Both the position numbers and the translations under genes were made by a program. From a virus: 49,795 nucleotides of DNA. The notes beneath the pieces were generated by a model. It was not told where the DNA came from, searched no databases, and saw only the letters and a list, made by a program, of their open reading frames with translations. Below are positions 4,730 to 47,788 of the stretch, one piece after another. How positions within the stretch are numbered: the first letter of the stretch is position 1; the number at the start of each line of letters is the position of its first letter. The DNA is taken from the UHGV virus genome UHGV-0206958. One strand, 5' to 3'.

Positions 4730-4975
4730 ATGGCCGGATTAACAAAAGAGCAGCGCGCGCAGCGTGAAGCGGAAAAGCTTGCAGCTCAGCAGACCGCTGA
4801 TAATAACCCTGCCCAGCAGGAACAGCAGCAGGAACAGCAGCAGGAACAGCAGGGTATTGAGCTGGTGGTCATGGTTCGCGACATCCCAGAATTCCCAGGC
4901 GGCCCGCTGCGCGCAGATGTTCATCCTGACGAAGTGAATAACTGGCTGGCGCTGGACTGGCGTCTGGAGGAATAA
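4730..4975 (+). CDS. Small head-associated protein with a QQEQ tandem repeat
   Basis: 81 aa, RBS AGGAGG. Contains a 12-nt unit (cagcaggaacag) repeated three times. Confidence 0.5.
   Translation: MAGLTKEQRAQREAEKLAAQQTADNNPAQQEQQQEQQQEQQGIELVVMVRDIPEFPGGPLRADVHPDEVNNWLALDWRLEE
4814..4849 (+). repeat. Perfect 12-nt tandem repeat x3 (cagcaggaacag) encoding (QQEQ)3
   Basis: Direct reading of the sequence. Confidence 0.9.
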
Positions 4976-4977
4976 CC

Positions 4978-5460
4978 ATGCTGGTTGCCGATCCCCATTC
5001 GCCGGACTTTAACAGCTACGCCAGCGTGTCCGACCTGCGGGTCTTTGCCGCCGCGCGCGGATACACCATTCCTGCCGAAGATGGCGAGTGTAGCCAGATG
5101 CTGATGCAGTCGATGGACTTTCTGGAAGGAAGGACCTGGCGTGGTCAGCGCTCCAGCGCATCTCAGCCTCTATCCTGGCCGCGCTCCGGCGTACGCTTCG
5201 ATGGTGTGGACCTGCCGGATGATGCTATTCCACAGCGCCTGATTGATGCCCAATGCCGCCTGGCTATCGAGTCGCAGGAGATTGACCTCACGCCGTCGGT
5301 CTCCGGTGGCGGCGCGGTCATAGCTGAGAGCGTACAGGGGGCGGTCTCTGTGCAGTACGAGCCGGGAACGAATAAGGCTACTCCATCATTCCCCTGGTTC
5401 TATTCCTCGCTGCGCGGGCTTGTGGTCGGCGGCAACCAGGTCCGGATCGAAAGGGGGTAG
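4978..5460 (+). CDS. Head-tail connector/adaptor protein (gp6-like)
   Basis: 160 aa, placed right after the capsid block. Its start overlaps the upstream stop (TAACCATG). Confidence 0.45.
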   Translation: MLVADPHSPDFNSYASVSDLRVFAAARGYTIPAEDGECSQMLMQSMDFLEGRTWRGQRSSASQPLSWPRSGVRFDGVDLPDDAIPQRLIDAQCRLAIESQEIDLTPSVSGGGAVIAESVQGAVSVQYEPGTNKATPSFPWFYSSLRGLVVGGNQVRIERG

Positions 5461-5461
5461 C

Positions 5462-5815
5462 ATGGCAATCGACTATCGCCGCATGCGCGCCACGGCAACG
5501 CGGCTGCTGACGGAGAACGGCAAAGCCTACCAACTGACTCGCGGAGGTACTACCACCCGCGATCAGTACGGGAAAGAGGTTATCACCGAGCCAATTACAG
5601 CGACCGTTACCGGCGTTATCACCGAATACTCCACGCGTGAAATCGACGGTTCACTGATTGCTACGGGCGATAAGAAACTGGCGGCCACGTTTGAAACGGA
5701 AGTGCGCATTGGCGACCTCATTGATATCGACGGCAAAAAATGGCGCGTAGTTCAGCCGAATCCGGTTAAGCCCGCAGACGTGCTGATTTCCTATAACATC
5801 CAGCTGAGGACCTGA
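5462..5815 (+). CDS. Head closure / head-tail joining protein
   Basis: 117 aa, RBS AAGGGGG. Assigned by position. Confidence 0.4.
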   Translation: MAIDYRRMRATATRLLTENGKAYQLTRGGTTTRDQYGKEVITEPITATVTGVITEYSTREIDGSLIATGDKKLAATFETEVRIGDLIDIDGKKWRVVQPNPVKPADVLISYNIQLRT

Positions 5816-5817
5816 TT

Positions 5818-6417
5818 ATGACCAGTTCTGCAAATCAGCCGTTTCTGGCTGCCATTCAGTTGTTCGTAGATGGTTCAAAGCAGGAGATTGAGGAGGCGGT
5901 CCGCCGGACGGGTATCAAAATACTCGGGCGGTTGGTGGACATGTCACCTGTCGGGCAGCCAGAAATCTGGCAGGTAAACCAGACGGCATCAGCCTATAAC
6001 ACCGCCGTGCGAGAGCATAATGCGGCGCTACGTGATGATCCGGCCAACCTTACAAAAGCAGGGCGGCTCAGGCGAGGCCTGCGTGTCAACGATTCGATGG
6101 ACATCAAAAAGCCAGAGGGTTATGTCGGCGGGCGATTCAAAAATAACTGGTATGTGGGGCTCGACAGCCAGCCTACAGCGACGAACGATACCCCAGATGC
6201 TTCCGGGCAGGGTTCCAACTCCCGCGGGCTGGCGGTGCTCGAAGTATTTCGGGTGGGGCAGGTGAACTCGATTTACTTTACCAATAACCTGCCATATGCC
6301 CAGGCGCTGGAGAATGGTCATTCGAATCAGGCGCCCGGCGGCATGGTCGGACTGACCGCATTGGATGCTGCGCAATATTTCCGAGAGGCAATGAGCGAGG
6401 TACGCAATGGTCGGTGA
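5818..6417 (+). CDS. Tail completion / neck protein (HK97 gp10-like)
   Basis: 199 aa, ATG overlaps the previous stop (TGATTATG). Assigned by position. Confidence 0.4.
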   Translation: MTSSANQPFLAAIQLFVDGSKQEIEEAVRRTGIKILGRLVDMSPVGQPEIWQVNQTASAYNTAVREHNAALRDDPANLTKAGRLRRGLRVNDSMDIKKPEGYVGGRFKNNWYVGLDSQPTATNDTPDASGQGSNSRGLAVLEVFRVGQVNSIYFTNNLPYAQALENGHSNQAPGGMVGLTALDAAQYFREAMSEVRNGR

Positions 6418-6853
6418 TCAGTCCATGCGAATAGCTGACCTGCTGGAGAGCCGGGTAGCCATAATCTCGGCCTCTCTCGGCTTGCCGATCGCATGGCCGA
6501 ATATCGTATTTGATCCACCGGATGCGCCATACGCCCGTGTTTATGTTTTACCTGCACAAACTGTAGGTCAGGACATAGAAGGTCTGATGCGTACCTATCA
6601 GGGGATCTTGCAGGTAAACATCATTACTCCCGCAGGCTCAGGCGTGAGCCAGGCAAGAGGGCTGGCCCAGTCGGTGGCAGATGCATTCCCTGAAGGACTG
6701 CCGCTGGTGGACGGTGATCTGACGGTTTACATCAACGGGCCGCCGCAGGTGAGACAATCCATCCAGGACCGGCCAGCCTCGGCGCCCAACGGGTCCAGTG
6801 GCTCCATAACCTACACCATTCCCGTCAGCATGCAGTATCGCGCTGACTACTGA
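6407..6853 (+). CDS. Tail terminator protein (gpU-like)
   Basis: 148 aa, immediately upstream of the major tail gene. Confidence 0.4.
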   Translation: MVGDQSMRIADLLESRVAIISASLGLPIAWPNIVFDPPDAPYARVYVLPAQTVGQDIEGLMRTYQGILQVNIITPAGSGVSQARGLAQSVADAFPEGLPLVDGDLTVYINGPPQVRQSIQDRPASAPNGSSGSITYTIPVSMQYRADY

Positions 6854-6876
6854 CCCGCCAGAAGGCGGGTTTTTTA
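6854..6876 (+). terminator. Rho-independent terminator (CCCGCC-AGAA-GGCGGG-T5)
   Basis: Perfect 6-bp GC stem followed by TTTTT. Confidence 0.6.
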
Positions 6877-6899
6877 TTACCTAAATTCAGGAGAGTGCT

Positions 6900-7832
6900 A
6901 TGGCATTCGCAATCCCTAACGGCTCGCGTGTGAACGTGGCCAAGGCCTATCAAGCCCCGATCACCTTTACCGCAGCCTCTAACGCGACGGAATGCGAACT
7001 GACCGTTGCATCGGCCTCCGGCATTCTGGCTGGTGACGTAGTTCAGGTGAGTTCCGGCTGGTTAAAGCTCGATAACATGGTGCTGCGCGTAAAATCGGTG
7101 ACCAGTAATAAAATCGTGCTGGAAGCATTCGATACTACCGACACCACCAAATTCCCGGCAGGCACTGGCGCGGGCACGCTGCGCAAAATCGACTCATGGA
7201 TCACCATGCCTCAGGTGATGACACTATCAACTGAAGGCGGTGACCAGCAGACCATCAGCGTGCAGTTCCTGGAAGATGACAAAGCGCGAACCATCCCAAC
7301 ATTTAAAAACGCGGTGGTTCAGGTTTACACCTTTGCGCATGACCCTCAACTGGCGATCTACAAACGCCTCATTGACCTGGATGACTCCAGCGATACAACG
7401 GCGGTCTGGTTCCATAACCCACGCGGCAAAGCCGATCGTTTCTACTCAGCCAAAGTATCGTTCCAGCGCGTACCGCGCACGGAAATCAACGCCGTGGAAA
7501 GTAACGAGGCGCGCATGAACTTCGAATCGGACATGCAGATTTACCCGATCGCCGATTCATCCGTGACGCCGCTGGCGTTCCTGACCGACCTGCCGGCCAC
7601 CAAGTCCGTTGCCACAGGCGCAGCGCTGGATCTGGCAGTGGTAATGAAGGGCGGCTCAGCACCTTACACCTACGTTTGGAAGAAAGGCAGCACCGCTATT
7701 CCGGGCAAAACCGCATCGACGCTCAACATTTCGTCCGTCGTGTCCGGGGATGCTGGCGTTTACACCTGTGAAGTCACCGACGCCGCGGGCAAAACCATCA
7801 CCTCTACTGCGTGTACTGTCACGGTCAGCTAA
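6900..7832 (+). CDS. Major tail protein with C-terminal Ig-like domain
   Basis: 310 aa, RBS AGGAGAG. The C-terminal roughly 90 aa (YTYVWKKGS...GVYTCEVTD...CTVTVS) is an I-set/Big-like Ig fold, as seen in lambda gpV-type tail tube proteins. Confidence 0.8.
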   Translation: MAFAIPNGSRVNVAKAYQAPITFTAASNATECELTVASASGILAGDVVQVSSGWLKLDNMVLRVKSVTSNKIVLEAFDTTDTTKFPAGTGAGTLRKIDSWITMPQVMTLSTEGGDQQTISVQFLEDDKARTIPTFKNAVVQVYTFAHDPQLAIYKRLIDLDDSSDTTAVWFHNPRGKADRFYSAKVSFQRVPRTEINAVESNEARMNFESDMQIYPIADSSVTPLAFLTDLPATKSVATGAALDLAVVMKGGSAPYTYVWKKGSTAIPGKTASTLNISSVVSGDAGVYTCEVTDAAGKTITSTACTVTVS

Positions 7833-7839
7833 CCAATCA

Positions 7840-7866
7840 GGCCCGGTAAGCCGGGCTTTTTTTTGG
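7840..7866 (+). terminator. Rho-independent terminator
   Basis: GCCCGG-TAA-GCCGGGC followed by T8. Confidence 0.65.
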
Positions 7867-7874
7867 AGTAACCC

Positions 7875-8210
7875 ATGAGCGGAACAATTGAGATTAGTGA
7901 GGTTGGGATGACAGTCAATATGGCTGGTGGCGGGAAAATAGTTATCGGCAATTGGGGTGATGGCCCAGTAAATACAATAACCGCTCGGCCACCCCTTACC
8001 CCGGAAGAGGGGCTTTACGGTCACGGGCTATGTCTCCTGCCTGATGGATGGGAAGATCTAAGCGGTGATGGACACTGGCAACATCACCTCACTAAATCTT
8101 TGCGTCATCTTTGGCCGTCGTTCAGCAGGGAACAGAAGATGGCTATCGCTTACTCCATCAGCGAACTGTCAGATGAGCTGACGAACACCGCATACGAAGG
8201 CTCCAGGTAA
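7875..8210 (+). CDS. Hypothetical protein
   Basis: 111 aa, with GGAG RBS. Confidence 0.4.
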   Translation: MSGTIEISEVGMTVNMAGGGKIVIGNWGDGPVNTITARPPLTPEEGLYGHGLCLLPDGWEDLSGDGHWQHHLTKSLRHLWPSFSREQKMAIAYSISELSDELTNTAYEGSR

Positions 8211-8258
8211 AAACACATCTGCGCATCGCACGCGCACATCGAAGAAAGTCTTTCAGCT

Positions 8259-8312
8259 GTGAGCCTGGGCAAACCGTTAACTTTCGGCGGATTTGCCGTG
8301 CGACAGGCTCAC
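8259..8312 (+). other. Nested stem-loop in the 5' leader of the next gene
   Basis: GTGAGCCTG ... CAGGCTCAC outer stem with an inner GGCAAA/TTTGCC stem. No T-run follows. Confidence 0.4.
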
Positions 8313-8331
8313 GTCTAAAAGGAAAATTAAA

Positions 8332-9123
8332 ATGTCAGAACCTTCAATCGTCCCTTATGTAAAAACCACTCCCAAACCTTTTGGTGTGGACGTCGAATGG
8401 AAATGGCCGGGTGGCTGCGCGGTGCTAGAACTGCAATGCCTTCATGAAGATGGCCGACTTATGAAAGAACGCATCTTCTGGCCAGCTACCGTATGCCTTA
8501 TTTCCGGCCTCAAAGCTGGTGAGAGATTGCAGGTGCGCCTGCGTCCAATTGCAGAAGATGGCTCAGCACGAGATTGGCGAGCCGGTGACTGGATCGAAGG
8601 GGTTTCTTCTGTCGATACCGAAGAGATTATTGAGGCGCTGGACGAAGAGATCCGTAACAGCTGCGCACTTCATGGCCTTAAAGGTGGCTGGTTTGTTGAT
8701 AAAACCGGCAAGGCTTACATCCACGAGGCGCTGATCGGCAATGGCACATTGTCTACGAACTACAGCGTGAAGATGAACGTGGATTATGGTGGCAAACGGT
8801 ACGCAGCTGGCATGACCCTCGGAGTTGAAGACGGCCAGAGCAAGGTAGAGTTTAAAGCTGATCGCTTTAAGGTACATGAAGCCGCTTCATCCATTATTGA
8901 AAACGCCGTGGCATCAGCCACGAAGGCGAAGATTTCTCTCTGTGAAGAAATGGAACAGGCCATCATTGATGCCGTGCGTGAAAGCGATTTGTTCGCAGCC
9001 CTCCAGGAAAAGATTGATGCGCAAACAGCGTCAGTAGCTGGCCTGCAACAGGCGATGAACGAAGCGGTCACCAATGCTATTAAAAACGCGCTGAAGCCCG
9101 GTGGCCTGCTTTACAACCGTTAA
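8332..9123 (+). CDS. Tail-associated protein sharing a motif with the distal part of gpJ
   Basis: 263 aa from ATG 8332 (the ORF track uses a TTG at 8293). The motif YGGKRYAAGMTLGVEDGQS...KADRF matches J's NGKQYAAGMGIGVEN...LADRF, and A-IGNGT matches J's A-IGEGT. Confidence 0.5.
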   Translation: MSEPSIVPYVKTTPKPFGVDVEWKWPGGCAVLELQCLHEDGRLMKERIFWPATVCLISGLKAGERLQVRLRPIAEDGSARDWRAGDWIEGVSSVDTEEIIEALDEEIRNSCALHGLKGGWFVDKTGKAYIHEALIGNGTLSTNYSVKMNVDYGGKRYAAGMTLGVEDGQSKVEFKADRFKVHEAASSIIENAVASATKAKISLCEEMEQAIIDAVRESDLFAALQEKIDAQTASVAGLQQAMNEAVTNAIKNALKPGGLLYNR

Positions 9124-9149
9124 CCTCCCATCACGCACTCGAATACTCG

Positions 9150-9172
9150 ACCCGCTCCGGCGGGTTTTTCAT
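9150..9172 (+). terminator. Rho-independent terminator (CCCGC-TCCG-GCGGG-T5)
   Basis: Hairpin followed by a T-run. Confidence 0.6.
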
Positions 9173-9188
9173 TTTCTAAGGAACCGAA

Positions 9189-9527
9189 ATGACCAAATTT
9201 TCTCTGAACCCCAACCCAACTTTTTCTGTGACCGCGAGCATTCCGCGTGCTGGAGCCGAAGACGGCAAGCTGACGTTCACCTTCCGCCATAAGACACTGG
9301 AAGAGCTGCGCTCTATGGACGAAAAGCTGCAAAAGGCCGCTGAAGGTAAAAAGGCTGCTATCGAGCCGCAGGCCGACTACCTCATGGACATTGTCGAAGG
9401 ATGGGCACTGCCGGACGAGTTCAACCGCGAAAACGTTATTGTCCTTCTGCGGAACTATCCACGCGCGTTCGACAGCATCGGTCTGGCATACACCAAAGAG
9501 CTGATGGGTATCCGCGAAAAAAACTGA
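9189..9527 (+). CDS. Tail assembly chaperone (gpG-like)
   Basis: 112 aa, immediately upstream of the tape-measure gene. Ends at an A7 slippery run. Confidence 0.7.
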   Translation: MTKFSLNPNPTFSVTASIPRAGAEDGKLTFTFRHKTLEELRSMDEKLQKAAEGKKAAIEPQADYLMDIVEGWALPDEFNRENVIVLLRNYPRAFDSIGLAYTKELMGIREKN

Positions 9528-9832
9528 GGCAGGTCGCCGCAGCGTTGTACACGCCGGGACCGACGCTCGCGGAGCTGAGCGCTTTTGGTTTGACGCCTGA
9601 GGACGTGGAGGAAGAGGTGGGGATCCTGCCCTCTGTGTGGAAGTCTTTCACCATCTTCTCTGCCCTGGCAACCCAGTGGCGAGTCGGCGCGAGCGGGGCG
9701 ACCGGCCTTGATTACAACGTTCTCCCCTGGATGTTCGAGTTACACGGGGTTGAGGATGCGGCGGCCTGCATGGCTGACCTTCAAATTATGGAAAGCGAGG
9801 CTCTCAAGGTAATGCATAAGGAGACGAAATAA
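9189..9832 (+). CDS. Tail assembly chaperone G-T fusion produced by a -1 programmed frameshift
   Basis: The -1 frame stays open from the G stop through to the tape-measure start (track ORF 9401..9832). The G-A7-C motif is at 9516..9524. Confidence 0.6.
9517..9523 (+). promoter_or_regulatory. Slippery heptamer A AAA AAA for the G/GT -1 frameshift
   Basis: An A7 run 2 nt before the G stop. This arrangement is conserved in lambdoid tail chaperones. Confidence 0.6.
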
Positions 9833-12800
9833 TGACAGACCAGATCGCCTCGATTACTTTGCGGGCCGATGTTTCTGACCTGAAAACAGCCAGCAACGAA
9901 CTGGATAAACTCGGCCAGGCGGCGGCCGGTGCTGTAGATAAAGCAGATGATCTGAATAGCGTGTTTCGCGCTGGCGCTGAGTCTGCGAAGCAGGGCAGCG
10001 AAGGTATCAAGGAGCAGCAGAACGCGCTCAAAGGGTTGCTGGAGAATATCGATCCGGTTACCAAGGCCTTAAACCGCCTGGATGAGCAGCAAGAATCACT
10101 GCGGAAATTTCAGGCCAAAGGTTTCCTGGATACCGAGACCTTTCAGGCTTACAACAAAATCCTGGATGACACCCGTCTCAAGCTGACCGATACCGGAGAA
10201 GCCGCGGCGCGCGCTCAGGCCGAATTAGCCGCTACCCAGGCAGCAGAGAAGCAGTCCGCAGCGTTAAAGAACCTGCTGGGTTCCATCGACCCGACAATCC
10301 GTGCGTTCAACTCGCTGGATGAACAACACGCGCAGCTGGTGGCGCACTTCGAATCAGGCCGCATCAACGGCGCGCAGTTCGAGCACTTCAACGGCATCCT
10401 CAACCAGACGCGGGAGCGTCTGTCTGGCGTGGCTGACGTGCTGCCAGAGGCGCTATCCCGGCAGGAAGCTGCTGCCCGGCGGGCTGGTATCTCTGTAGGC
10501 CAGTACAGCGCAGCGATGCGTACGCTGCCTGCTCAGTTCACCGATATTGCTACTCAACTGGCTGGTGGTCAGTCGCCGTTCCTGATCCTGCTGCAACAGG
10601 GCGGACAGATTAAAGACCAGTTTGGTGGGGTTAAAGGGGCTCTAACGGGGGTGGGCGACTATTTACGCACTCTGTTAGGTTTCATTAATCCTGTAACGAT
10701 AGGTATTAGCGGTCTGGTTGTAGGCCTCGGGGCGATGGCTGTAGCTTGGTACAAAGGCAGCCAGGAAGCCAGTGAGTTTAATAAGCAGCTCATACTAACG
10801 GGTAATTATTCGGCCAGTTCGGCGAGCCAACTGTCAGACATGGCTCAAAAAATTGGAGGCTCCAGTGGTAAGGTTGCGGCTGCCGCTCGGACGCTCGCGG
10901 AGGTGGTTGGGGCAGGGACGTTTAAAACGGAGCAGCTCGAAACAGTTACCAAGGCGGCGCTGGCGATGCAGGAGGCCACTGGCCAGTCTGTTGACGCCAC
11001 CATTAAGAACTTCCAAAAGCTGTATGCCAGCCCAACCAAGGCGGCGGAGGATCTTAATTCTACGCTCCATTTCCTCACCTCATCGCAATACGGCTATATT
11101 TCGGCACTGGAGCGTCGGGGTGATAAAGAGGGCGCGGCAGAGGCGGCTGCAAAAGCTTATAGCCTAGCTGAGCAAAAGCGCAGCCAGCAAATCCTCGACA
11201 ACATGGGATTAATTGAGAGAGCTGCTGGTAGCGTCAGCAAGGCCCTTAAGGGGATGTGGGATGAACTTCTGAATATTGGTCGCCCTGAAGCTCCGAACGA
11301 CATGCTCCGCAAGATGCAGTCCGAACTTGCTGAGCGTGAGAAAGCCTTGCTTCCAGATAGACAGCGTCAGGGATATGGATATAGCTATGATGCGAGCAGT
11401 AACGATCAGGAATATGACGCACGTAGGAAAGCTCAGTTATCAGCGATAAGTGCTTTAAAGGCACAAATAGCGCCACTTCAACAAGCTGCTCAGCTTCAGG
11501 AAGATATTAGTGCTTCTATTCAGCAAGGAACCGAGGATGATAACAAGCGAACTAATGCCCTGATTTATCGAAACCGCATCCTTGAACAGTCAGCTACATG
11601 GCAGGAAAAACGCAGCAAGGCCCTGTCTGAACTTTGGAAAAATGTCGCGGCCTCGCCCGGCGACTGGAGCTCAGCACAGCGGCAGCAGGCTGTAGATGCC
11701 ATTAATAAACAGTTTCATCCGGACAAAACTCCCAAAACTCCAGCCGTTAAGGTTTCAACAGGTGATCGCTCAACCGACACCTACAATGCTGAAACTCTAG
11801 CTCTGCAAGCGCAGCTCAAAACGCTGCAGGATCATCGTGACATCAACGATGTAATCAGCCAGCAGCGTAAGCAGCAGTGGGAGTTAATCTCAAAAATCAC
11901 CATCCTCGAGTCCACAGCTAACGATCCGAAAGGGCGTGCATTAACTTTCGATGAAAAATCGTTGCTGGCGAACAAAGAGAAGCTGCTGGCCCAGGCAGAT
12001 ATTAATGCCGGACTGGGTGATCAAATTGCCAAGCAGCAAAAATTGAACTCATTGGCTGACCAGGCAACTAAGTTCGCCCAGCAACAGTCTGCCAAGCAGG
12101 CGGAAATTGCGGCAGCAGCTAGAGGCTTGTCCACCAGAGAGGCTGAAAGGGAGGCGACGCGCCAGCGCCTGACTGAATCCTACGGCTTTAACCAAGACGC
12201 TCAGAAAAAGGTTCTCGCAGATCAAGAGGAGACCTACCGGAAAGAAGATGAACTTCGCAGCGACTGGCAGGCTGGCGCAAAGCGGGGCTGGGCCGATTAT
12301 GCCGACTCAGCAACAAACACGTTTGAAGCAATGCGAAATGTGGCCGGTTCAACCTTCAGTGGTCTATCCGACATGTTGACAGATCTGGTTACTACCGGCA
12401 CTGCAAGCTTCAAAGACTTCACCAAGTCCATGTTGAAGATGATCGCGCAGGTAACGAATCAGTTGCTTGTGGCTTACGCCGTTCAGGCTGCGATGGGGTG
12501 GATTAGCGGTAGTGCTGGTGGCAACACGCCAGGCGGAGCATATGCCAGCGCTGCAAACTCTGGAGTTAGCCTGTTTGATTCCGGTGGTTACACAGGTGCG
12601 GGCGGTAAATATGAACCCGCAGGCATCGTGCATAAAGATGAGTTCGTTTTCACCAAAGAAGCCACTAGGCGGATCGGCGTAGATAACCTATATCGTCTAA
12701 TGAACAACGGTAATTTAGGCCGTTACGCTTCTGGTGGGCTTGTTGGGGGAAATCAGGCTGGGGCGGCAGACTCTGGCGTGCCAATTATCAGCGTCAGTTT

Positions 12801-33137: not shown

Positions 33138-33602
33138 TTACTTCTGAATGCTTTGGATGATGTTGGTAACGTCATCCTTGAGGAGATCTAGCTCTTTAAG
33201 AGTAGCTTTTGCGTGAACGATGAGGCGAAGCTTTTCAGCTTCAGGCATCTGGTTGAATAATGAGAGCAAAGCGATTTCTTTTTCATCCAGTTGCCGTGGA
33301 GGTTGATGCATGCTCAGGTCATCATCACCTGCATCAGGCGGCATAAAAAACCAATGCTCTGGTTTACCTGTGGCAGCTGCAAGGCGTTTCAACCTTTCAC
33401 CTCGAGGCGCTGACTCACCTTTAGCCCATTGCTGAACTGCCTGGGGAGTAACCATGGCTCTCCTGGCTATATCAGACATGTTCCAGCCGAATTCATCTTT
33501 GATGAGCTGAAGTCGGTAGGCGAACGCTTCATGAGGTGCTTTTTTCATGGCATTCATTCTACAAGGTAGCCTTTCATAGTGCATTGCAAAGATTTTTTTC
33601 AT
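33138..33602 (-). CDS. Prophage repressor, HTH_XRE only (RacR-like), no S24 peptidase domain
   Basis: 154 aa with the HTH FAYRLQLIKDEFGWNMSDIARRAMVTPQAVQQWAKG. The start is ambiguous (M1 may be leaderless, or M20). It is divergent from a cro-like gene. Confidence 0.65.
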   Translation of the reverse strand: MKKIFAMHYERLPCRMNAMKKAPHEAFAYRLQLIKDEFGWNMSDIARRAMVTPQAVQQWAKGESAPRGERLKRLAAATGKPEHWFFMPPDAGDDDLSMHQPPRQLDEKEIALLSLFNQMPEAEKLRLIVHAKATLKELDLLKDDVTNIIQSIQK

Positions 33603-38246: not shown

Positions 38247-38503
38247 TGGACCATTTGCTGAAATACGCTTGTAGGCGTGTGGCTGAGTTGGAAAATCTCC
38301 TGCTGGTGGAAGTACCTGAAACCATATGGCCTGCCGAGGTCGGTATGGTCTACAGCCAGATTGAAAACGCCGGGAACCTGCCGGCGCACCACCAGCGCCG
38401 CCTGCAGCATCACATCAATCGGATGTGGCTGGAACGAATGCCGGTACCGTCAATTATCGCTGCTGCCCGCTCGCTGGCCACCGCCATGGAGGAATACGCG
38501 TGA
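38246..38503 (+). CDS. Hypothetical protein (GTG start coupled to the upstream stop)
   Basis: GGAGGA RBS with GTG overlapping TAG. 85 aa. Confidence 0.4.
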   Translation: MDHLLKYACRRVAELENLLLVEVPETIWPAEVGMVYSQIENAGNLPAHHQRRLQHHINRMWLERMPVPSIIAAARSLATAMEEYA

Positions 38504-40542
38504 GAGAAATTATTGTTGATAACTTTGCTGGCGGCGGCGGGGCGAGTACAGGAATTGAAATGGCTATCGGGCGCAGTGTGGATATTGCGATCAACCACGA
38601 CCCGAACGCCGTTGCGATGCACACCACCAACCACCCGGACACGTTGCACTATTGCGAATCCGTCTACGAGGTCCGGCCAAAGATTGCGACCGCTGGCCGC
38701 CCGGTTGCGCTGGCATGGTTTTCTCCTGACTGCCGTCACTTTTCGAAAGCCAAAGGCGCAAAGCCCGTTGAGAAAGCGATTCGCGGACTGGCGTGGATTG
38801 TCATTCGCTGGGCGCTGGATGTTGGCCCGCGCGTGATGATGCTGGAGAACGTTGAGGAGTTCAAAACGTGGGGGCCGTTGCTACGTGAAATGCCGTTTAT
38901 CAGTCACGCAGATCGCTTCCTGGATGAATTTATTGGTCCGCCGCAAGCTGTTGAGCAGCGCCCGGATCCTGCCCGCTCTGGCGAAACTTTTGAGGCATTC
39001 ATTGGCATGCTGACCACTGGCATTTCAGCAGATCATCCTGCGCTGGCGGAATGCTGTGAATTTCTGAATCTTTCGTTGGACAGCGAGGAAGCTGCACGTC
39101 TGGTAAAAGGCCTGGGCTATGCCGTTGAGTATCGCGAGCTTCGTGCCTGTGATTATGGTGCTCCGACGATCAGAAAGCGTTTCTTCATGGTGATGCGCCG
39201 GGACGGGCAGCCAATTACCTGGCCGGAAGTAACCCACGCGGATCCGAAATCTCCAGCAGTGCAGGCTGGGAAGCTGGCGCCGTGGCGAACAGCTGCTGAA
39301 TGCATCGACTGGTCGATTGCCGCGCCGTCAATTTTTGGCCGTAAAAAGCCGCTGGCAGAAAACACTCTGAAGCGGATAGCCCGGGGAATTCAGCGCTTCG
39401 TCCTGGACAATCCGACGCCGTTCATCGTGAAGTGTAACCACACCAGCACCCGTTCGGGTTATGACTGTTTCAGAGGTCAGAGCCTGAATGAGCCTTTGCA
39501 GACCATCACAAAAAAACACGGCTACGCAATCGCAGTACCGCACCTGACGAAGTTCCGCACAGGTGCTACTGGGCAGGAAGTCACTGAACCGGTACCGACA
39601 ATTACCGCAGGTACATCGAAGCGTCCGGGCGGCAACGGGCATGCACTTGGCATGGTAGAAGCCGCACTTACACCTTTCCTGGCTGGTAACGGCGGCAGTG
39701 AATATCAGGCAAAGCCGCGCCCGCTGGAAAAGCCTGCGCATACAATCCTGAAACAGTCACGGGCGTGCGTTGTTGCCCCGGTTATTGCCCGGCAGTTCGG
39801 CGCCAGTACAGGACATCGGGCAGACGAACCCAGCGCGACAATCACCGCTGGTGGCGGCGGCAAATCGCAGCTGGTGATGCCTACGCTCATTCAGATGGGC
39901 TATGGCGAACGCGCGGGGCAGGAGCCGCGCGTGCTGCAACTGGATAATCCGCTTGGTACCGTTACGGCAGGCGGCAATAAATTCGCCACTGTGAGCGCGT
40001 TCCTGGCGAAGCACTACGGCGGGAATTACCAGGGCGCTGGCGTGGGCATGGACGAGCCGATGCACTCTGTGACAACCGTCGATCACCATGCTGCGGTAAC
40101 CTCTCATCTGGTGAAGCTGCGAGGAACCTGCCGGGACGGACAGCGCACCGACCAGTCAATGCCGACCATTACCGCTGGTGGCACGCATGTGGGAGAGGTG
40201 AAAACCATGCTGGCCGTAGACGGATACGACGAGCAGCGCGCGCAGCAGGCGCTGGCGTTCCTGCGCGAATATTGTGGCCCGGACAGCACTGGCCTGGTGA
40301 CGCTGGATGGGGTGGTTTATCGCATTGTCGATATTGGCATGCGCATGCTGCAACCACATGAGCTATACCGGGCGCAGGGCTTTCCGGAATGGTACATCAT
40401 CGACCAGGATTTCCGGGGCGTGAAGTACGCGAAGGATAAGCAGGTGGCGCGTTGTGGAAATGCGGTTCCTCCGCCATTCGCAGAGGCGCTGGTGAGGGCG
40501 AATCTCCCTGAACTTTGCCAGTCGAAAGAGATAGCAGCTTAA
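38500..40542 (+). CDS. DNA (cytosine-5) methyltransferase with a repetitive C-terminal extension
   Basis: GTG start with a GGAGGA RBS, overlapping the upstream stop. Motif I FAGGGG, a Cys motif SPDCRHFS and ENV are present. The C-terminal half has five (P)TITAGG-like repeats. Confidence 0.75.
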   Translation: MREIIVDNFAGGGGASTGIEMAIGRSVDIAINHDPNAVAMHTTNHPDTLHYCESVYEVRPKIATAGRPVALAWFSPDCRHFSKAKGAKPVEKAIRGLAWIVIRWALDVGPRVMMLENVEEFKTWGPLLREMPFISHADRFLDEFIGPPQAVEQRPDPARSGETFEAFIGMLTTGISADHPALAECCEFLNLSLDSEEAARLVKGLGYAVEYRELRACDYGAPTIRKRFFMVMRRDGQPITWPEVTHADPKSPAVQAGKLAPWRTAAECIDWSIAAPSIFGRKKPLAENTLKRIARGIQRFVLDNPTPFIVKCNHTSTRSGYDCFRGQSLNEPLQTITKKHGYAIAVPHLTKFRTGATGQEVTEPVPTITAGTSKRPGGNGHALGMVEAALTPFLAGNGGSEYQAKPRPLEKPAHTILKQSRACVVAPVIARQFGASTGHRADEPSATITAGGGGKSQLVMPTLIQMGYGERAGQEPRVLQLDNPLGTVTAGGNKFATVSAFLAKHYGGNYQGAGVGMDEPMHSVTTVDHHAAVTSHLVKLRGTCRDGQRTDQSMPTITAGGTHVGEVKTMLAVDGYDEQRAQQALAFLREYCGPDSTGLVTLDGVVYRIVDIGMRMLQPHELYRAQGFPEWYIIDQDFRGVKYAKDKQVARCGNAVPPPFAEALVRANLPELCQSKEIAA

Positions 40543-42413: not shown

Positions 42414-42766
42414 AAATTTACGAAATTACGCCGATTGGCAAGCCCCGAATGACTCAGCGTGATCGATGGCATAAACGGCCAGCAACAGCAGCGTACTGGG
42501 CATACAAAGAACAGGTCCGGTTGCTTGGCATCCGTCTGCCTGAGTCCGGATATCACATCACGTTCGTCATCCCCATGCCGAAGAGCTGGAGTAAGACAAA
42601 GCGGGCGCAATATGTCGGCCAGCCTCACCAACAAAAGCCTGACAAAGACAATCTGGAAAAAGCTCTGCTGGATGCAGTGTTTGACGAGGATAGCCATGTC
42701 TGGGACGGACGGGTAACCAAAATCTGGGGAGAAACCGGGCAAATTATCATCGGGGAGGCCACATGA
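42410..42766 (+). CDS. rusA: RusA Holliday junction resolvase
   Basis: 118 aa with the DKDNLEKALLDAV catalytic motif (the RusA D-x-D-N motif). Confidence 0.85.
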   Translation: MKIYEITPIGKPRMTQRDRWHKRPATAAYWAYKEQVRLLGIRLPESGYHITFVIPMPKSWSKTKRAQYVGQPHQQKPDKDNLEKALLDAVFDEDSHVWDGRVTKIWGETGQIIIGEAT

Positions 42767-42900
42767 AGCCAGAAACGCTTGAGGTACTCCGAGCGCGCTG
42801 GCAGCGCCTTCGCATTTACCGCTACCGGGGATCAGTGCTGGTGGACTACCGCATCCTTCGTAATTTTGTTCGAATCTATCATTCAGCAGGAGCCGCATAA
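42763..42900 (+). CDS. Small hypothetical protein (45 aa) coupled between rusA and Q
   Basis: ATGA overlap with the rusA stop and TAATG overlap with the Q start. Confidence 0.3.
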   Translation: MKPETLEVLRARWQRLRIYRYRGSVLVDYRILRNFVRIYHSAGAA

Positions 42901-43709
42901 TGAACCTCGAATCAATAGCTAAATATTTCGCACCAAAATCACCGATGTTCAGTGACTCCTCGAGGGCGACTGCCACCGACAATCTGACCGGAACTGATGT
43001 TATGGCCGCGCTTGGACTGGTTAACGCCAAGTGTGGGTTTGGATTCGATTTATACCTTGCAAAAATTGGTATCAGCAGCCCTGACCGGGCAATGGAGGCG
43101 CTTTATGGAGCATCGCTGGACCTATGCCGACGCTTTAAATCAGTTACAGAACTCGATGAAAAAGTTCGGCAGCGCGTTCTCGAAATTATGTGTGCTTTTG
43201 TATACCAGGATTACGCCCGTAGTGCGGCAAGCGTTCGCAGATGTGACTGCTGCGATGGTAGCGGCTTTACCGAAGTCGAGGTATTCACCAACAAAATCCA
43301 ATACCCTGACGGCAAGCCGCCAAAATGGGCAAAAGTTACAAAGGGTGTTTACCCCTCATACTGGGAGGAGTGGAAATCAGTTCGGGAGAACGCGCGAGTT
43401 CTGTGCAAAGCGTGTAACGGCAAAGGCTTTATCAGCAATGCGTGTCGTTGCCACGGAAAAGGGAAGGTGCTGGATAAGAAAAAGACAGAGGAACAGGGCG
43501 TGCCGATCATGAAGGTGTGTGACCGCTGCACGGGGAGAGGATACGCCCGGCTAAAATTCTCCAATGTGCTGGAGGGCGTCCGCACCGTATGGGATGTAAA
43601 AAAAACCACCGCTTACGATCACCTGCAACCGCTGTTTGAATTGCTGGTGGAGGAGTGCCATCGGCAGGAAGGTTATGCAGAGAATGCCCTCAAATCCGTA
43701 ACTCAGTAG
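42900..43709 (+). CDS. Late antitermination protein Q (Phage_antitermQ family)
   Basis: 269 aa with four CxxC zinc motifs (CDCCDGSG, CKACNGKG, CRCHGKG, CDRCTGRG). It is positioned before the lysis genes. Confidence 0.75.
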   Translation: MNLESIAKYFAPKSPMFSDSSRATATDNLTGTDVMAALGLVNAKCGFGFDLYLAKIGISSPDRAMEALYGASLDLCRRFKSVTELDEKVRQRVLEIMCAFVYQDYARSAASVRRCDCCDGSGFTEVEVFTNKIQYPDGKPPKWAKVTKGVYPSYWEEWKSVRENARVLCKACNGKGFISNACRCHGKGKVLDKKKTEEQGVPIMKVCDRCTGRGYARLKFSNVLEGVRTVWDVKKTTAYDHLQPLFELLVEECHRQEGYAENALKSVTQ

Positions 43710-43760
43710 TAGGATTTTTCACAAAAAGTTAATTTCATGGAAAAATGATATTGAGCTTTA
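43710..43760 (+). promoter_or_regulatory. Candidate late promoter pR' / Q-utilisation region
   Basis: Position only: immediately downstream of Q and about 110 nt upstream of a strong terminator. TTCACA and TGATATTGA are the candidate elements. Weakly supported. Confidence 0.3.
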
Positions 43761-43835
43761 CGGAATTATTGGCTAATATCGACTCTAACGCTGGGAATCC
43801 GTTCAATCGTTTCGACCAGCAAGAAATCAATCAAG

Positions 43836-43866
43836 CCCTGCGGTTAATACCGCGGGGTTTTTTCGT
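43836..43866 (+). terminator. tR'-like intrinsic terminator about 130 nt downstream of Q
   Basis: CCCTGCGG-TTAATA-CCGCGGGG followed by T6. It lies inside the track ORF 43745..44020, which is therefore rejected. Confidence 0.65.
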
Positions 43867-43983
43867 TTGGGGGATTAAAAAATCTCCCCAGCTTCTCAAT
43901 GAAGAAAAATTAAACCTCTTGTTATGGTGTGGTTTTTCATTTGGGAGTACATTTTGCTCATGCGAATCTTACGTGAGTGAACT

Positions 43984-44766
43984 ATGGAACCCAGAGGAAA
44001 TTACCTTATCAAACCCCTGAGAGATCTTGGGTGTGGTGCATTTGGCAGAGTTGAGAAAGTCGAAGTTTACAACACTGCTGGGCACTTAAGTGGTGAGTAC
44101 GCAAGAAAAGTGCTTTCAGTCAATCCGGTTTTGTTGAATGAATACTTCAGTGTTGATGATTGGAAGCGAAGATTTAGAAGGGAAGTTGATTATCAAGCTA
44201 AGTGTAGTCACGATCATGTCGTGAGAATTTGCATACATAATCTTGATTGCGAACACCCTTGGTTCGTTATGGAACTGGCCGAAACCGACTTAAGAAGTGA
44301 GTTGAGGTCCAACGCGCTGCTAGACGATGAAAAGCTATCAGCCCTTCAAATGGTATTCAAAGGTGTGCAATACCTTCATAGAAATGGATTGCTGCATCGA
44401 GATCTAAAGCCCGAGAATATCCTGAAATTTGATGGTGGATGCTACAAAATTTCAGACTTTGGATTGATTAAGAAAATGGATTCGAAAGCCCAATCCGATT
44501 TCCTCTCTGGGGTATTACAAGATAAAAATGCCGGAATAGGCACGGCCAAATACATGTCCGATGAGGCTAAAAGAGGAGTTTATACTCAAAAATCGGATAT
44601 TTTTGCATTGGGTGTCATCATTAGCGAAATGGATTTGGCTCATATTGATGGCATAAGTGCCCTGATAGACAAATCCGCTGCATTCTTACCTCGTTCAAGG
44701 TACGATTCGGTAGACGAAATGATTGTTGCACTTGATGAGATTATTGCTACTAGGAGAGGCAAATGA
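43984..44766 (+). CDS. Hanks-type Ser/Thr protein kinase
   Basis: G-loop LGCGAFGRV, Lys in YARKVL, catalytic loop HRDLKPENIL, DFG, and an activation segment GTAKYMSDE. AT-rich. Confidence 0.85.
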   Translation: MEPRGNYLIKPLRDLGCGAFGRVEKVEVYNTAGHLSGEYARKVLSVNPVLLNEYFSVDDWKRRFRREVDYQAKCSHDHVVRICIHNLDCEHPWFVMELAETDLRSELRSNALLDDEKLSALQMVFKGVQYLHRNGLLHRDLKPENILKFDGGCYKISDFGLIKKMDSKAQSDFLSGVLQDKNAGIGTAKYMSDEAKRGVYTQKSDIFALGVIISEMDLAHIDGISALIDKSAAFLPRSRYDSVDEMIVALDEIIATRRGK

Positions 44767-45509
44767 TTGAGCTGTTGAATTGCGGTGCATTCTCATGCCC
44801 AAAAGATCCAAGTCGCGAAAACCAAGATGCCATTCTGCTTCCGCAACCTTGTAACGATGGTTTCATTTTTGCTGTGGCTGATGGTGTAGGTTCATATGTA
44901 GGTGCTGGAGAGGCTGCTCAAGCAGCTATAAACTTTGTTGCTGGGCATAAGGATAGAGCTGGGCATGAGCCAGGAATCATTTTCGCAGGCATCAAAAACA
45001 ACATAGCAGAGCTTTCTCAGAACGATTCGGCGCAGCGCAAGGCGGCTACAACTTTATCATATTGTGTTGTTACTGGTAATGAACTTGTCATTGTTCATGT
45101 TGGCGATACACGAGTTTATGTAAAAACCGAAAACAAACTAAAGCAGTTGACTAAGGACCACACCCAACATCAAGAGTTGCTCGACGCTGGTTTGTATAAC
45201 AAAAAAGAGCTAGCAGAATTACCTGGAAGCAATATGCTGACTGCTGCTCTGTCTAAGGTGTTACCTATCAACTTTCAGCATATAACTTTGCCGCTAGCGG
45301 ATTTTGTAGATGAGAACGGCATCATCACGATTATCATTATGTCTGATGGCGCCCACCATCATTGGGAGCGACGACCTCGGTTTTCCCCTAATACACTGAA
45401 CAATGCAAATAGCTTCACTTCGAGCCTTTTAAAACGTATACAAAGAGTTGGCCCTACAGATGACCATTCTCTGATCGCCGTGAATTTAAGGGTAAGTTCA
45501 AGAGACTAA
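44763..45509 (+). CDS. PP2C-family (PPM) Ser/Thr phosphatase
   Basis: ENQDA, FAVADGVGS, GDTRVY, TKDHT, IMSDG and DDHSLIAV are ordered PP2C metal-binding motifs. The ATG overlaps the kinase stop. Confidence 0.8.
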   Translation: MIELLNCGAFSCPKDPSRENQDAILLPQPCNDGFIFAVADGVGSYVGAGEAAQAAINFVAGHKDRAGHEPGIIFAGIKNNIAELSQNDSAQRKAATTLSYCVVTGNELVIVHVGDTRVYVKTENKLKQLTKDHTQHQELLDAGLYNKKELAELPGSNMLTAALSKVLPINFQHITLPLADFVDENGIITIIIMSDGAHHHWERRPRFSPNTLNNANSFTSSLLKRIQRVGPTDDHSLIAVNLRVSSRD

Positions 45510-45570
45510 TTTCAACTGTTTCAGTTTATTGTTCAATTTAGAATAGTAGCGCTGTTTCCCCCCTTTTATT

Positions 45571-45596
45571 AGCCAGCCTAAGAGCTGGCTTTTTCT
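45571..45596 (+). terminator. Rho-independent terminator after the kinase/phosphatase pair
   Basis: AGCCAGC-CTAAGA-GCTGGCT followed by T5. Confidence 0.55.
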
Positions 45597-45699
45597 ATTT
45601 CAGGTACGTAAGAAACAAACTCTATAAGACTTCTTGTTAAATCATCTCGAGAGCCTGACCTTTTAAACACACAGCACCCGCACATAGCGAGGTGAGAGC

Positions 45700-45915
45700 A
45701 TGAATCGAATGGAAAAAATCACGACGGGTATTGCATACGGCGCATCTGGAGGGGGGACCGGCTACTGGTTACTTCAGCTCCTCGATAAAGTCTCCCCATC
45801 TCAATGGGCGGCCATTGGTGTGCTGGGAAGCCTCATGTTTGGTTTGCTGACGTGGTTAACGAGTCTGTACTTCCAAATCAAAGCGGATCGCCGCAAAGCT
45901 GCGCGGGGTGAATGA
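45700..45915 (+). CDS. Pinholin (phage 21 S21-like class II holin) with a dual-start motif
   Basis: [14 protein letters not shown]...[14 protein letters not shown]...RRKAARGE. Met1 and Met4 give the antiholin/holin pair. Confidence 0.85.
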
Positions 45916-46451
45916 TGTCGAACAAAGCAAAGCTCAGCGCAGCAGTGCTGGCGCTAATCGCGTCAGGTGCATCTGCTCCACTCATTTTCGACCAGTTCAT
46001 CAGCGAGAAAGAAGGCAATGCGCTGGTGGCCGTTGTTGATCCGGGTGGGGTCTGGTCTTTATGTCATGGCGTAACCGTTATCGATGGCAGGCGTGTGGTT
46101 AAAGGCATGACGGCCACAGAAGAACAATGCCGCAAGGTTAACGCTATTGAACGCGATAAGGCATTAGCCTGGGTTGATCGCAATATCAAAGTGCCTCTGA
46201 CAGAGCCGCAGAAGGTAGGTATCGCATCCTTCTGCCCGTACAACATTGGTCCGGGTAAATGCTTCCCTTCGACCTTTTACAGGCGCATTAATGCAGGCGA
46301 CCGGAAAGGTGCCTGTGAGGCTATACGCTGGTGGATTAAAGACGGTGGTCGTGATTGCCGTCTGACTAAAGGACAGAAGAATGGATGTTACGGCCAAGTC
46401 GAACGACGTGACCAGGAAAGCGCGCTGACGTGCTGGGGGATAGACCAGTGA
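45912..46451 (+). CDS. SAR endolysin (T4-lysozyme family, R21-like)
   Basis: N-terminal signal-anchor-release segment [19 protein letters not shown] and a catalytic E...D...T triad. Confidence 0.85.
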
Positions 46452-46545
46452 GTCCGAGCAACATTTGTTTCATTGTGGCAGGAATTCTTGCGTGTCTCGG
46501 TATGTCTGGTTGGGGATGGTTTCTGTTCGTAGGGGTAATCCTCTT

Positions 46546-46923
46546 ATGAGCCGATTAACCGCAATCATCTGCGCTGTCATTATCTGCCTGCTTGTTTCCA
46601 TGTCCTGGGCGATTAACCACTACCGCGACAACGCTATCAACTACAAAGGCCAGCGCGATAAAGCGACGGTCAGGGCAGAAACATCGGAGGCGATCACCAG
46701 AAACGTGATCACCACGATGAACCTCATCCGTGACATCTCACAGGCTACCCAGAATGCAAAGAACGAACTGGCCAAAAAAGGCGAAACGCGCATTGTCTAC
46801 ATCAGGCAGGCGCTTGAAGGCGATCCGTGCGCTAACCAGCTTGTTCCTTCTGCCGCTGCTGACAGCCTGCGGGAATACGCAGACAGTTTACGTTCCGGCC
46901 CCGGTGGTGCCGATAAGCGCTGA
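46546..46923 (+). CDS. i-spanin Rz
   Basis: [22 protein letters not shown]-terminal TMD followed by a coiled-coil periplasmic domain. GGGGTAATCCTCTTATG RBS. Confidence 0.7.
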
Positions 46924-47116: not shown

Positions 47117-47317
47117 ATGTTAACAGTAAAAGTAATGTCGCCAAGTGGCGGTGAAGAGATTCATTGCGGGTTGAGTGTAGGGTTCAATCCGGGGCAGCAG
47201 AGCATCGCGGTATCGGGAATGGACAAAAATGTATTCCTGAAACCTGGCGAGGTCGCCTACGTGATGAACCAGAACGGGAAGACGGTATCTCGTTACGAGC
47301 ATAATGACCGCCAGTAG
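47117..47317 (+). CDS. Hypothetical small protein
   Basis: 66 aa with a strong GGAG RBS. Confidence 0.4.
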   Translation: MLTVKVMSPSGGEEIHCGLSVGFNPGQQSIAVSGMDKNVFLKPGEVAYVMNQNGKTVSRYEHNDRQ

Positions 47318-47416
47318 CCATTCCAAAGCTCACCTGCTGGTGGGCTTGATAATGGATATCCCACTGAGCGGATAAATCAAAAATAACCCCTGCAACGGAT
47401 AATGACGGAGCAACAA

Positions 47417-47788
47417 ATGGCAAAAGCCAAATGGCACAGACTTCCGGCATTCACCATTCCGCTGTTTCAAAGTGCGCATGTCTACCTCGCAACAACCAGA
47501 GAACAGTTTCAGCACGCTGATAAATTCCTTGGCGGCAGCGGGGATGAGAGGTCGTTTAACTCTGGACTGGCAAGCAACTATGAAAACACCGATACCGGAG
47601 AGCGTTGCTACCTGATCGGAGTATTCGATAACCAGATATCCACGCTCGTTCATGAATGCGCTCACGTATGCTTTTACGTTTGCTCTGATGTCGGCGTGAC
47701 AACCAAGCCGGAAGACGCCAACGAAACGTACTGCTACATGCTGGATCGCATGTTCAGCCACTTCCTGCCATACCTCAAACAGGAGTAA
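47417..47788 (+). CDS. Hypothetical protein with an HExxH motif (putative small zinc metallopeptidase)
   Basis: 123 aa. VHECAHV is the HEXXH core. GGAG RBS. Confidence 0.4.
   Translation: MAKAKWHRLPAFTIPLFQSAHVYLATTREQFQHADKFLGGSGDERSFNSGLASNYENTDTGERCYLIGVFDNQISTLVHECAHVCFYVCSDVGVTTKPEDANETYCYMLDRMFSHFLPYLKQE

Follow-up and report, generated by a model that had tools for sequence, protein, structure and literature searches.

A kinase-PP2C phosphatase gene pair carried as mobile cargo in temperate phages, and its possible role as a phosphorylation-based exclusion module

The virus genome UHGV-0206958, which is 49,795 nucleotides in length and is referred to here in its entirety as the window, carries a pair of overlapping genes between its late antiterminator gene, Q, and its lysis genes. 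The upstream gene encodes a Hanks-type Ser/Thr protein kinase and the downstream gene encodes a Ser/Thr phosphatase of the PP2C family. We consider this pair to be a self-contained, mobile two-gene moron and, by analogy with characterized systems, we think it most likely, with a probability of roughly 0.5, that it functions as a phosphorylation-based superinfection-exclusion, abortive-infection, or type VII toxin-antitoxin (TA)-like module. A reversible TA-like or exclusion module was among the options raised in an earlier annotation of this DNA (hereafter, the original prediction), and by the same analogy it appears to be the best-supported reading of the evidence presented here.

The upstream gene (positions 43984-44766, + strand) encodes a protein of 260 amino acids that matches the Pfam family Pkinase (PF00069) with an E-value of 2.4e-32 and a score of 112.8 bits, compared to a curated cut-off of 31.7 bits, and the PHROGs family phrog_2361, described as 'serine-threonine kinase', with an E-value of 2.5e-67. 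We placed the catalytic residues of both proteins of the pair by alignment to solved structures and to family members (48 kinases and 45 PP2Cs). The kinase contains the motifs GCGAFG (residues 16-21), K42, E67, HRDLKPEN (residues 138-145), DFG (residues 158-160), and DIFALG, and the residues G16, G18, G21, K42, E67, H138-R139-D140, K142, N145, and D158-F159-G160 are invariant in the 48 homologs. HRDLKPEN is a catalytic loop of the Ser/Thr type. An AlphaFold2 model of the protein (pLDDT of 88.5) shows a single kinase domain, and a Foldseek search with this model returns PknB, IRAK4, and RET with TM-scores of 0.7-0.77. The 260-amino acid protein is a Hanks-type Ser/Thr kinase with every feature that defines one. 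It carries no accessory domain: Pfam reports kinase-domain families only, with no CSD and no FHA domain.

The downstream gene (positions 44763-45509, + strand) encodes a protein of 248 amino acids that matches PP2C_2 with an E-value of 7.5e-17 and a score of 62 bits, compared to a curated cut-off of 24 bits, and phrog_5650 with an E-value of 9e-46. Its metal-binding residues, D22, D40-G41, D115, D195-G196, and D233-D234, are invariant in the 45 homologs, and its aspartates align with those of tPphA (2j82; equivalents D18, D34-G35, D119, D193, and D231). The AlphaFold2 model has a pLDDT of 86.5, and Foldseek matches it to the bacterial phosphatases PstP and tPphA with TM-scores of 0.7-0.75. This protein has the defining features of a PPM/PP2C phosphatase (PF13672/PF00481) and consists of the catalytic domain only. 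Thus, profile searches, family alignments, and structure prediction with Foldseek agree with the original prediction that the pair consists of a kinase with intact catalytic motifs and a PP2C with intact metal-binding motifs. From their sequences and models, both enzymes are predicted to be active, with opposing activities. Since the catalytic residues are intact and invariant within each family and the folds are canonical and confidently modeled, both activities are likely to be under selection. The profile of phrog_5650 is 565 positions long and the PP2C of the window covers positions 273-523 only, which suggests that some members of phrog_5650 are fused or mis-merged kinase-PP2C proteins.

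The two genes are joined by a stop/start overlap at positions 44763-44766 (+ strand), read directly from the sequence, in which the ATG of the PP2C gene overlaps the TGA of the kinase gene as ATGA, as the original prediction had it. The overlap is preceded by AGGAGAGG, and the junction as a whole reads AGGAGAGGCAAATGATT, with a Shine-Dalgarno sequence ahead of the PP2C start codon. To place this arrangement in context, we collected 80 IMG/VR loci with a PP2C profile. A kinase gene lies immediately upstream of the PP2C gene on the same strand in 80/80 of these loci, and the order kinase-then-PP2C is found in every contig examined. At the junction, 61 loci show a 4-nt ATGA overlap, 13 show one of 8 nt, and one shows one of 7 nt; the remaining 5 have a gap of 0-3 nt. 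A stop/start overlap is therefore retained in 75/80 loci, down to approximately 35% kinase identity, which points to translational coupling and indicates that co-production of the two proteins is obligatory. Comparison of the window with L102, L108, and L140 shows that the two genes do not diverge evenly. In close relatives, the PP2C has changed more than the kinase (kinase 86% versus PP2C 73% identity in one case, 72% versus 55% in another), and in distant relatives the PP2C is better conserved (kinase 38% versus PP2C 47%). Recombination inside the cassette, or constraints that have shifted, may account for this unevenness.

The pair is contained within a 1.8-kb insert (positions 43869-45674, + strand) that consists of a short leader, the kinase gene, the PP2C gene, and a terminator. 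The limits of this insert are defined by the points at which homology breaks off and resumes. On the left, homology to Escherichia coli prophages extends through the nin region, Q, and the late leader and halts exactly at position 43868, the end of the T-run of the tR'-like terminator that follows Q. On the right, from position 45675 onward, the sequence again matches other phages, with 96-97% identity to their S21-type lysis cassettes. The GC content of the insert is 0.421 compared to 0.529 for the window, the minimum among 962 windows of equal size, and the GC content at third codon positions is 0.39 and 0.38 for the two genes compared to 0.54-0.69 for adjacent genes. An intrinsic terminator closes the cassette (positions 45571-45599, + strand); a terminator scan places its hairpin, AGCCAGC-CTAAGA-GCTGGCT, at positions 45571-45590, followed by TTTTTCT. 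The segment from 45572 to 45673 is conserved in two relatives (L102 and L103), and a strong intrinsic terminator lies 3' of the PP2C gene in 48 of 56 distinct related loci, whatever the slot. With conserved neighbors, sharp homology breaks, deviant composition, and its own terminator, the cargo is a moron, and its borders, GC content, and terminator indicate that the cassette moves as a unit. The AT-richness, the separate terminator at 45571, and the horizontal acquisition that the original prediction had suggested by eye are all borne out by these measurements. A short hairpin (positions 43872-43893; GGGGA-TTAAAAAA-TCTCCCC) stands right behind the tR' T-run, in the first bases of the cargo, and may be either a second terminator in tandem or a scar left by insertion.

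The conservation described above bears on the simplest alternative, namely that the two genes are decaying or neutral passengers with no current function. Its sole support is the absence of functional data. Opposed to it are the invariance of the catalytic residues and the intactness of both reading frames across homologs of 35-100% identity, along with the conservation of gene order, overlap, and terminator across many hosts. This pattern strongly disfavors the passenger explanation, to which we assign very little probability.

Orthologous pairs are present in sequenced phages. Cronobacter phage phiES15 (NC_018454) encodes a pair, gp21/gp22, with 72% (kinase) and 55% (PP2C) identity to that of the window and in the same layout, Q-kinase-PP2C-lysis; these genes were annotated as a kinase and a PP2C phosphatase in a genome published in 2012. 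Escherichia phage Flotzy (PP925827) encodes a pair (CDS0008/0009; 53%/53% identity), likewise annotated as a kinase and a PP2C phosphatase, that lies after Rz and before terS and not after Q. Both pairs have the same gene overlap and are true orthologs of the pair in the window. An arrangement nearly identical to that of the window is found in IMG/VR UViG_2671180246_000007 and in one ENA metagenome contig. The original prediction had taken a kinase-phosphatase operon to be undescribed in this slot, a claim that fails because the pair has been annotated since 2012 and recurs in public data, including approximately 20 of the 80 IMG/VR loci in which it follows Q. The pair is thus recurrent and annotated in this position, whereas a functional characterization of it was not found in the literature; in particular, our literature search found no functional study of the phiES15 or Flotzy pair.

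The family extends well beyond these phages. A tblastn search at E<=1e-5 matched 32 phage records, and family members were found on 119 IMG/VR contigs. In a large protein database clustered at 90% identity, there are approximately 100 kinase and more than 160 PP2C clusters, all of them bare proteins of roughly 245-262 amino acids, from Enterobacterales, Pasteurellaceae, Vibrio, Aeromonas, Acinetobacter, Xanthomonas, and Pseudomonas hosts. An exhaustive profile search of 1.84 billion representatives yields approximately 20 clusters (50% identity) at E<=1e-58 before the matches drop to generic PP2Cs, consistent with a compact PP2C family. At the DNA level, a megablast search with the cargo found no match in the phage collection, and among 5,426 complete E. 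coli genomes matched only through the 127-nt leader that follows Q. DNA of the Flotzy-type pair has no match in the same 5,426 genomes either, and the family is rare in E. coli. Two sets of apparent relatives were set aside. A contig scan for kinase motifs (HRD[LI]KPxNIL and YKISDFGL) gave only unrelated kinases from Chloroflexota, Planctomycetota, and other phyla, these motifs being generic to Hanks kinases. Faecal records labeled 'Bacteriophage sp.' in which a phosphatase gene precedes a kinase gene, considered as relatives of the KKP module discussed below, are Firmicute chromosomal housekeeping operons, RsmB-RlmN-Stp-PrkC(PASTA). MT836046.1 (positions 6100-12705; L181) and sibling MT83xxxx records, although labeled as phage, look like fragments of bacterial chromosomes and produce misleading kinase and phosphatase matches.

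We classified the 80 IMG/VR loci by the nearest recognizable upstream gene, identified with seed proteins; 17 of the 80 fall outside this classification. The pair follows Q in 20 loci, follows Rz or endolysin and precedes terS in 19, lies inside the head-tail connector cluster in 11, and follows an N-like antiterminator in 4. In 9 further loci, along with 2 truncated ones, it lies approximately 100 nt downstream of a CI-like repressor gene and is co-oriented with it, in the layout Cro(-) CI(+) kinase PP2C terminator Kil Bet; this spot is the position of rexAB in lambda. Outside of prophages, Acinetobacter baumannii, Aeromonas, and Xanthomonas carry the pair in chromosomal islets; the neighbors of the Xanthomonas copy are a ParE/Phd pair and an ATPase that is a full-length match to PADLOC HEC-04 (7.7e-47). 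The cassette occupies at least five phage slots plus non-prophage islets, and its location between Q and S in the window is incidental. The original prediction had drawn an analogy with the stx genes that occupy this slot in other phages. Because the module is not tied to this slot, the analogy tells us little about its function.

Several of these loci have accessory genes close to the pair. A DUF4760 protein is encoded tightly 3' of the pair in the Aeromonas copies (L017 and L018, positions 7590-8237), and a DUF6932 protein with a weak match to PADLOC PDC-M63A is encoded 5' of the pair in the Acinetobacter copy (L016, positions 4654-5826); these may be extra partners in chromosomal versions of the module. 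A 487-amino acid glycosyltransferase of the lysogenic-conversion type (phrog_1579) lies directly 3' of the cassette in several phages (L133, positions 6775-8238; L109, L116, and L128), such that the two form an accessory gene cluster behind the lysis cassette. In Enterobacter prophages that carry the pair after Rz, the slot between Q and the holin gene holds HicAB (L008 and L009, positions 2586-3233) and an N6/N4 DNA methyltransferase (L006-L011, positions 3504-4556), which marks this slot as a general hotspot for accessory and defense genes. E. coli EC17CM13 has the same leader behind a Q of the same size, and an unrelated gene separates this leader from the holin gene. In HK639, the equivalent slot is empty and contains four terminators.

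Within the window, the pair lies immediately downstream of the elements that govern late transcription, as originally proposed. The Q gene (positions 42900-43709, + strand) encodes a 269-amino acid late antiterminator (Pfam Antiterm PF03589, E=6.1e-37; phrog_127, E=4.6e-92). A consensus scan places a sigma-70 promoter candidate (positions 43718-43746, + strand; TTCACA-17-AAAAAT with TG upstream) at the point where the leader shared with E. coli prophages begins, and from its sequence we infer that it may act as a pR'-like promoter. The Q-linked late leader (positions 43742-43868, + strand; 127 nt) is 83-88% identical to 7 E. coli prophages, with identity stopping at 43868, and it ends in a tR'-like hairpin (positions 43833-43860 by terminator scan; a 12-bp stem with 7 GC pairs) followed by a T-run. 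A simple consensus scan, on which all of our promoter assignments are based, found no sigma-70-like site between tR' and the kinase gene. The 2.3-kb region of the window contains 2 promoter-like sites compared to a mean of 3.6 in shuffled sequence, and no consistent sigma-70 promoter was detected upstream of the kinase gene in 56 relatives, only weak 9/12 matches in 23 of them. Because the cassette follows tR' and has no recognizable promoter of its own, its main expression in this phage is predicted to be Q-dependent and late; in the lysogen, read-through would be basal at most.

This predicted timing invites the explanation that the kinase, made late under Q antitermination, phosphorylates host proteins to favor virion production. 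The targets could be transcription or RNA-processing factors, nucleoid proteins, or defense systems, with the PP2C limiting the extent or timing of phosphorylation or shielding phage proteins, much as T7 gp0.7 or JSS1_004 might act if they were made late. Phage kinases that disarm defenses are established: T7 gp0.7 (T7K) and JSS1_004 phosphorylate many host proteins and broadly disarm host defenses (PMC13645617, PMC12345140). Besides the position of the pair straight after pR'/tR', approximately 50 of the 80 loci are in late operons (after Q, after lysis genes, or among connector genes). However, a role in the lytic phase makes little sense for the cassettes behind CI or in chromosomal islets, and the existence of these cI-adjacent and non-prophage copies disfavors an exclusively lytic-phase function. 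Late expression would also miss defenses that are aimed at incoming DNA. T7K and JSS1_004 are early genes of virulent phages, they have no partner phosphatase (in the T7K paper, PMC13645617, phosphatases appear only as reagents), and they have no detectable similarity to the kinase of the window; no T7-like record is among the tblastn matches. We regard late host reprogramming as unlikely, although more probable than any other alternative to the reading that we favor.

The closest characterized analog of the pair, compared by description only, is KKP, a kinase-kinase-phosphatase module (PfpC/PfkA/PfkB) of Pf, P2, P4, and Mu-like prophages (Guo et al. 2024, PMC11341870). In KKP, two prophage kinases are jointly toxic and a PF13672 PP2C neutralizes them by catalysis; T4 Gp59 inhibits the phosphatase, which unleashes the kinases and triggers defense (PMC11341870). 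KKP has been classed as a type VII TA system. Like the pair described here, it is a mobile, prophage-borne operon that combines Hanks-type kinases with a PF13672 PP2C, and it too is known from non-prophage mobile or defense settings. Both are carried by temperate phages or mobile elements, although the element types differ: KKP is found on P2, P4, Mu, and Pf, whereas the pair is found in lambdoid and other siphophage slots. The differences in architecture are considerable. KKP has three genes in the order phosphatase-kinase-kinase and the pair has two in the order kinase-phosphatase, with no second kinase open reading frame (ORF) in the interval 43869-45674 according to the ORF list and Pfam. 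The KKP kinases have C-terminal CSD (PfkA) and FHA (PfkB) domains that are needed for toxicity, whereas the kinase of the window is bare; KKP toxicity requires both kinases, whereas the pair has a single kinase of 260 amino acids. Finally, KKP genes were filtered at 900-1300 bp, whereas all close relatives of the PP2C of the window have approximately 245-255 amino acids. By gene number, order, domains, size, and host elements, the pair is not a KKP module as that module has been described. The only systems that our search of the literature returned were KKP and single-kinase ones; a phage module of two genes, kinase and PP2C, was not among them.

Given that KKP is the best precedent, we favor an exclusion, abortive-infection, or type VII TA-like function for the pair. 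The KKP mechanism of a kinase toxin, a phosphatase antitoxin, and a phage inhibitor of the phosphatase could apply to it by analogy. The kinase and the PP2C would form a futile phosphorylation cycle in which the PP2C restrains both the kinase and the phosphorylation of the kinase's host or phage substrates. A trigger would tip the balance toward the kinase. The likeliest trigger is inhibition of the PP2C by a protein that a superinfecting phage brings in; alternatively, the two proteins could become imbalanced. Once essential proteins of the cell or the phage were phosphorylated, phage growth or cell growth would stop, and both the prophage and the lysogen would benefit from such exclusion. 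In support of this function, the cassette occupies slots that are typical of accessory genes, some of which (those adjacent to CI) are transcribed in lysogens, and non-prophage copies exist, including the one beside HEC-04 and ParE/Phd.

KKP is also a precedent for a different function, since besides defense it governs the lysogeny of Pf prophages through phosphorylation of MvaU (PMC11341870). By the same logic, the kinase/PP2C balance could set the phosphorylation of a host nucleoid-associated or regulatory protein and thereby tune induction, lysis timing, or host physiology, which would be lysogenic conversion rather than killing-based defense. Many loci do lie near CI, N, or Q, and some adjoin the lysogenic-conversion glycosyltransferase. 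No substrate is known, however, the slots vary and have unrelated regulation, and chromosomal copies without a prophage oppose a prophage-specific role, so we judge a regulatory switch to be somewhat less probable than late reprogramming. More doubtful still is pure addiction, or post-segregational killing, in which a stable kinase toxin and a less stable PP2C antitoxin would stabilize the mobile element with no role in phage-phage conflict. It draws on the presence of two overlapping enzyme genes on mobile elements, on the second TA pair near the Xanthomonas copy, and on the type VII TA classification of KKP. Against it, there is no evidence of a stability difference between the two proteins, an integrated prophage would gain little from addiction, and the pair has no DNA-binding antitoxin and no signature of autoregulation.

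Other defense kinases resemble the kinase of the window at the level of the domain. Staphylococcal Stk2 and E. coli PD-T4-6 likewise use a Hanks kinase core for anti-phage defense, and PADLOC profile searches match the kinase to Stk2 (E=5e-22) and to PD-T4-6 (down to 2.5e-31). These matches cover positions 153-358 of 500 in the Stk2 profile and, for example, positions 33-205 of 292 and 15-205 of 327 in PD-T4-6 profiles (292-547 positions long); the match to mad6 covers positions 53-249 of 659, and MkoA is likewise matched in the generic core only. Since none of these matches is full-length, they represent a domain-level resemblance and not membership in a system. Stk2 and PD-T4-6 are also single-gene systems with extra regions and no phosphatase partner. 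The lambdoid prophage 933W encodes Stk, a eukaryote-like kinase which, in a passage of PMC8008677 that cites Friedman et al. 2011, is implicated in the abortive exclusion of another phage; the same passage cites that work for the expression of stk during lysogeny. Some relatives of the cassette share with 933W stk a repressor-adjacent position that is expressed in lysogeny. In contrast to the pair, stk is a single gene without a partner phosphatase, and the pair of the window lies in the late and not the immunity region, far from the CI-like gene at positions 33138-33602. No 933W or other Stx-phage record is among the 32 phage records matched by tblastn. Thus, the comparators named in the original prediction, 933W Stk, Stk2, and T7 gp0.7, share with the kinase only the generic core or nothing detectable. 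Lambda rexAB, sieB-type morons, and stx resemble the cassette in being accessory cargo of classic slots (behind cI, in the pL operon, and between Q/tR' and S) with anomalous composition and their own terminators, but their proteins and biochemistry are unrelated.

A number of observations weigh against the exclusion or TA-like function that we favor. The toxicity of the kinase is assumed, and we found no functional study of any family member in the literature. In the window and in approximately half of the phage loci, the pair is located in a late operon with no convincing upstream sigma-70 promoter, and this placement is a poor fit for a defense that the lysogen must have in place before it is attacked. 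In contrast to the KKP kinases and Stk2, the kinase lacks any sensor or accessory domain. Its PADLOC matches are to generic kinase cores only, and the match of the PP2C to PDC-M21C is weak (1.6e-5). Association with defense islands is limited to a handful of loci.

We also offer a more specific proposal, tentatively and with distinctly less confidence than the exclusion or TA-like reading in general. The pair may define a minimal two-gene, domain-bare family of phosphorylation-based immunity or TA systems, distinct from KKP, that spreads as a promoter-less, terminator-bearing cassette into any temperate-phage operon (cI, pL, Q-late, or structural) and whose balance is tipped by a protein of a competing phage. 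In carriers with the pair in the Q slot, it may be a late exclusion system in the stx position that acts in the lytic cycle on superinfecting or co-resident phages.

The rest of the window is that of a complete lambdoid genome by Pfam and PHROGs annotation, with structural genes that are 91% identical to those of Escherichia phage HK639. In addition to the genes already described, it encodes an integrase, RecE/RecT, a CI-like repressor, an O-like replication protein, a C-5 methylase, a nin region, lysis genes, and terminase. The lysis cassette downstream of the cargo begins with a P21-type (S21-type) S holin gene (positions 45700-45915, + strand; PF04971, E=3e-31), followed by a lysozyme gene (45912-46451, + strand; PF00959, E=4.3e-21) and an Rz-like spanin gene (46465-46923, + strand; phrog_214, E=8e-36), with which it ends at 46923. 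An Rfam search of positions 42500-46500 gave nothing significant. A 91-amino acid ORF at positions 43745-44020 runs through the tR' hairpin, and several stop codons interrupt it in a contig with a 98% identical kinase; we rejected this ORF as spurious. In the second moron slot, which separates Rz from terS, there is a 128-amino acid ORF (positions 47402-47788, + strand) that has no Pfam family but has an HExxH motif (LVHECAHV), which suggests that it may be a small metallopeptidase-like accessory gene; a 66-amino acid ORF (47117-47317) lies directly upstream of it. A 705-amino acid protein (positions 38425-40542, + strand) matches C-5 cytosine DNA methylase in three stretches, the best of which comprises residues 31-147 only, such that most of the protein lies outside of it.

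Phosphorylation-based bacterial conflict systems are so far barely understood, the characterized examples being Stk2, 933W Stk, KKP, and, on the phage side, T7K. Annotated kinase-PP2C pairs were already known from public phage genomes; their domain-bare two-gene architecture is clearly distinct from that of KKP, the one prophage kinase-phosphatase system characterized so far. Because the genes were already annotated and the concept has published precedent, the value of the pair lies in being a testable variant and not a new principle. The family represents the simplest conceivable version of such a system, one bare kinase and one bare PP2C that are always coupled, and it is spread across elements of Enterobacterales, Pasteurellaceae-like, Vibrio, Aeromonas, Acinetobacter, and Xanthomonas hosts, including the rexAB and stx positions. 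If the pair acts in late host takeover, it would be the first temperate-phage counterpart of T7K with a built-in brake. If it is a defense or TA module, it would be a new class for defense-annotation tools, which now report only a generic kinase match, and it would provide a compact and tractable model of infection sensing by kinase/phosphatase balance.

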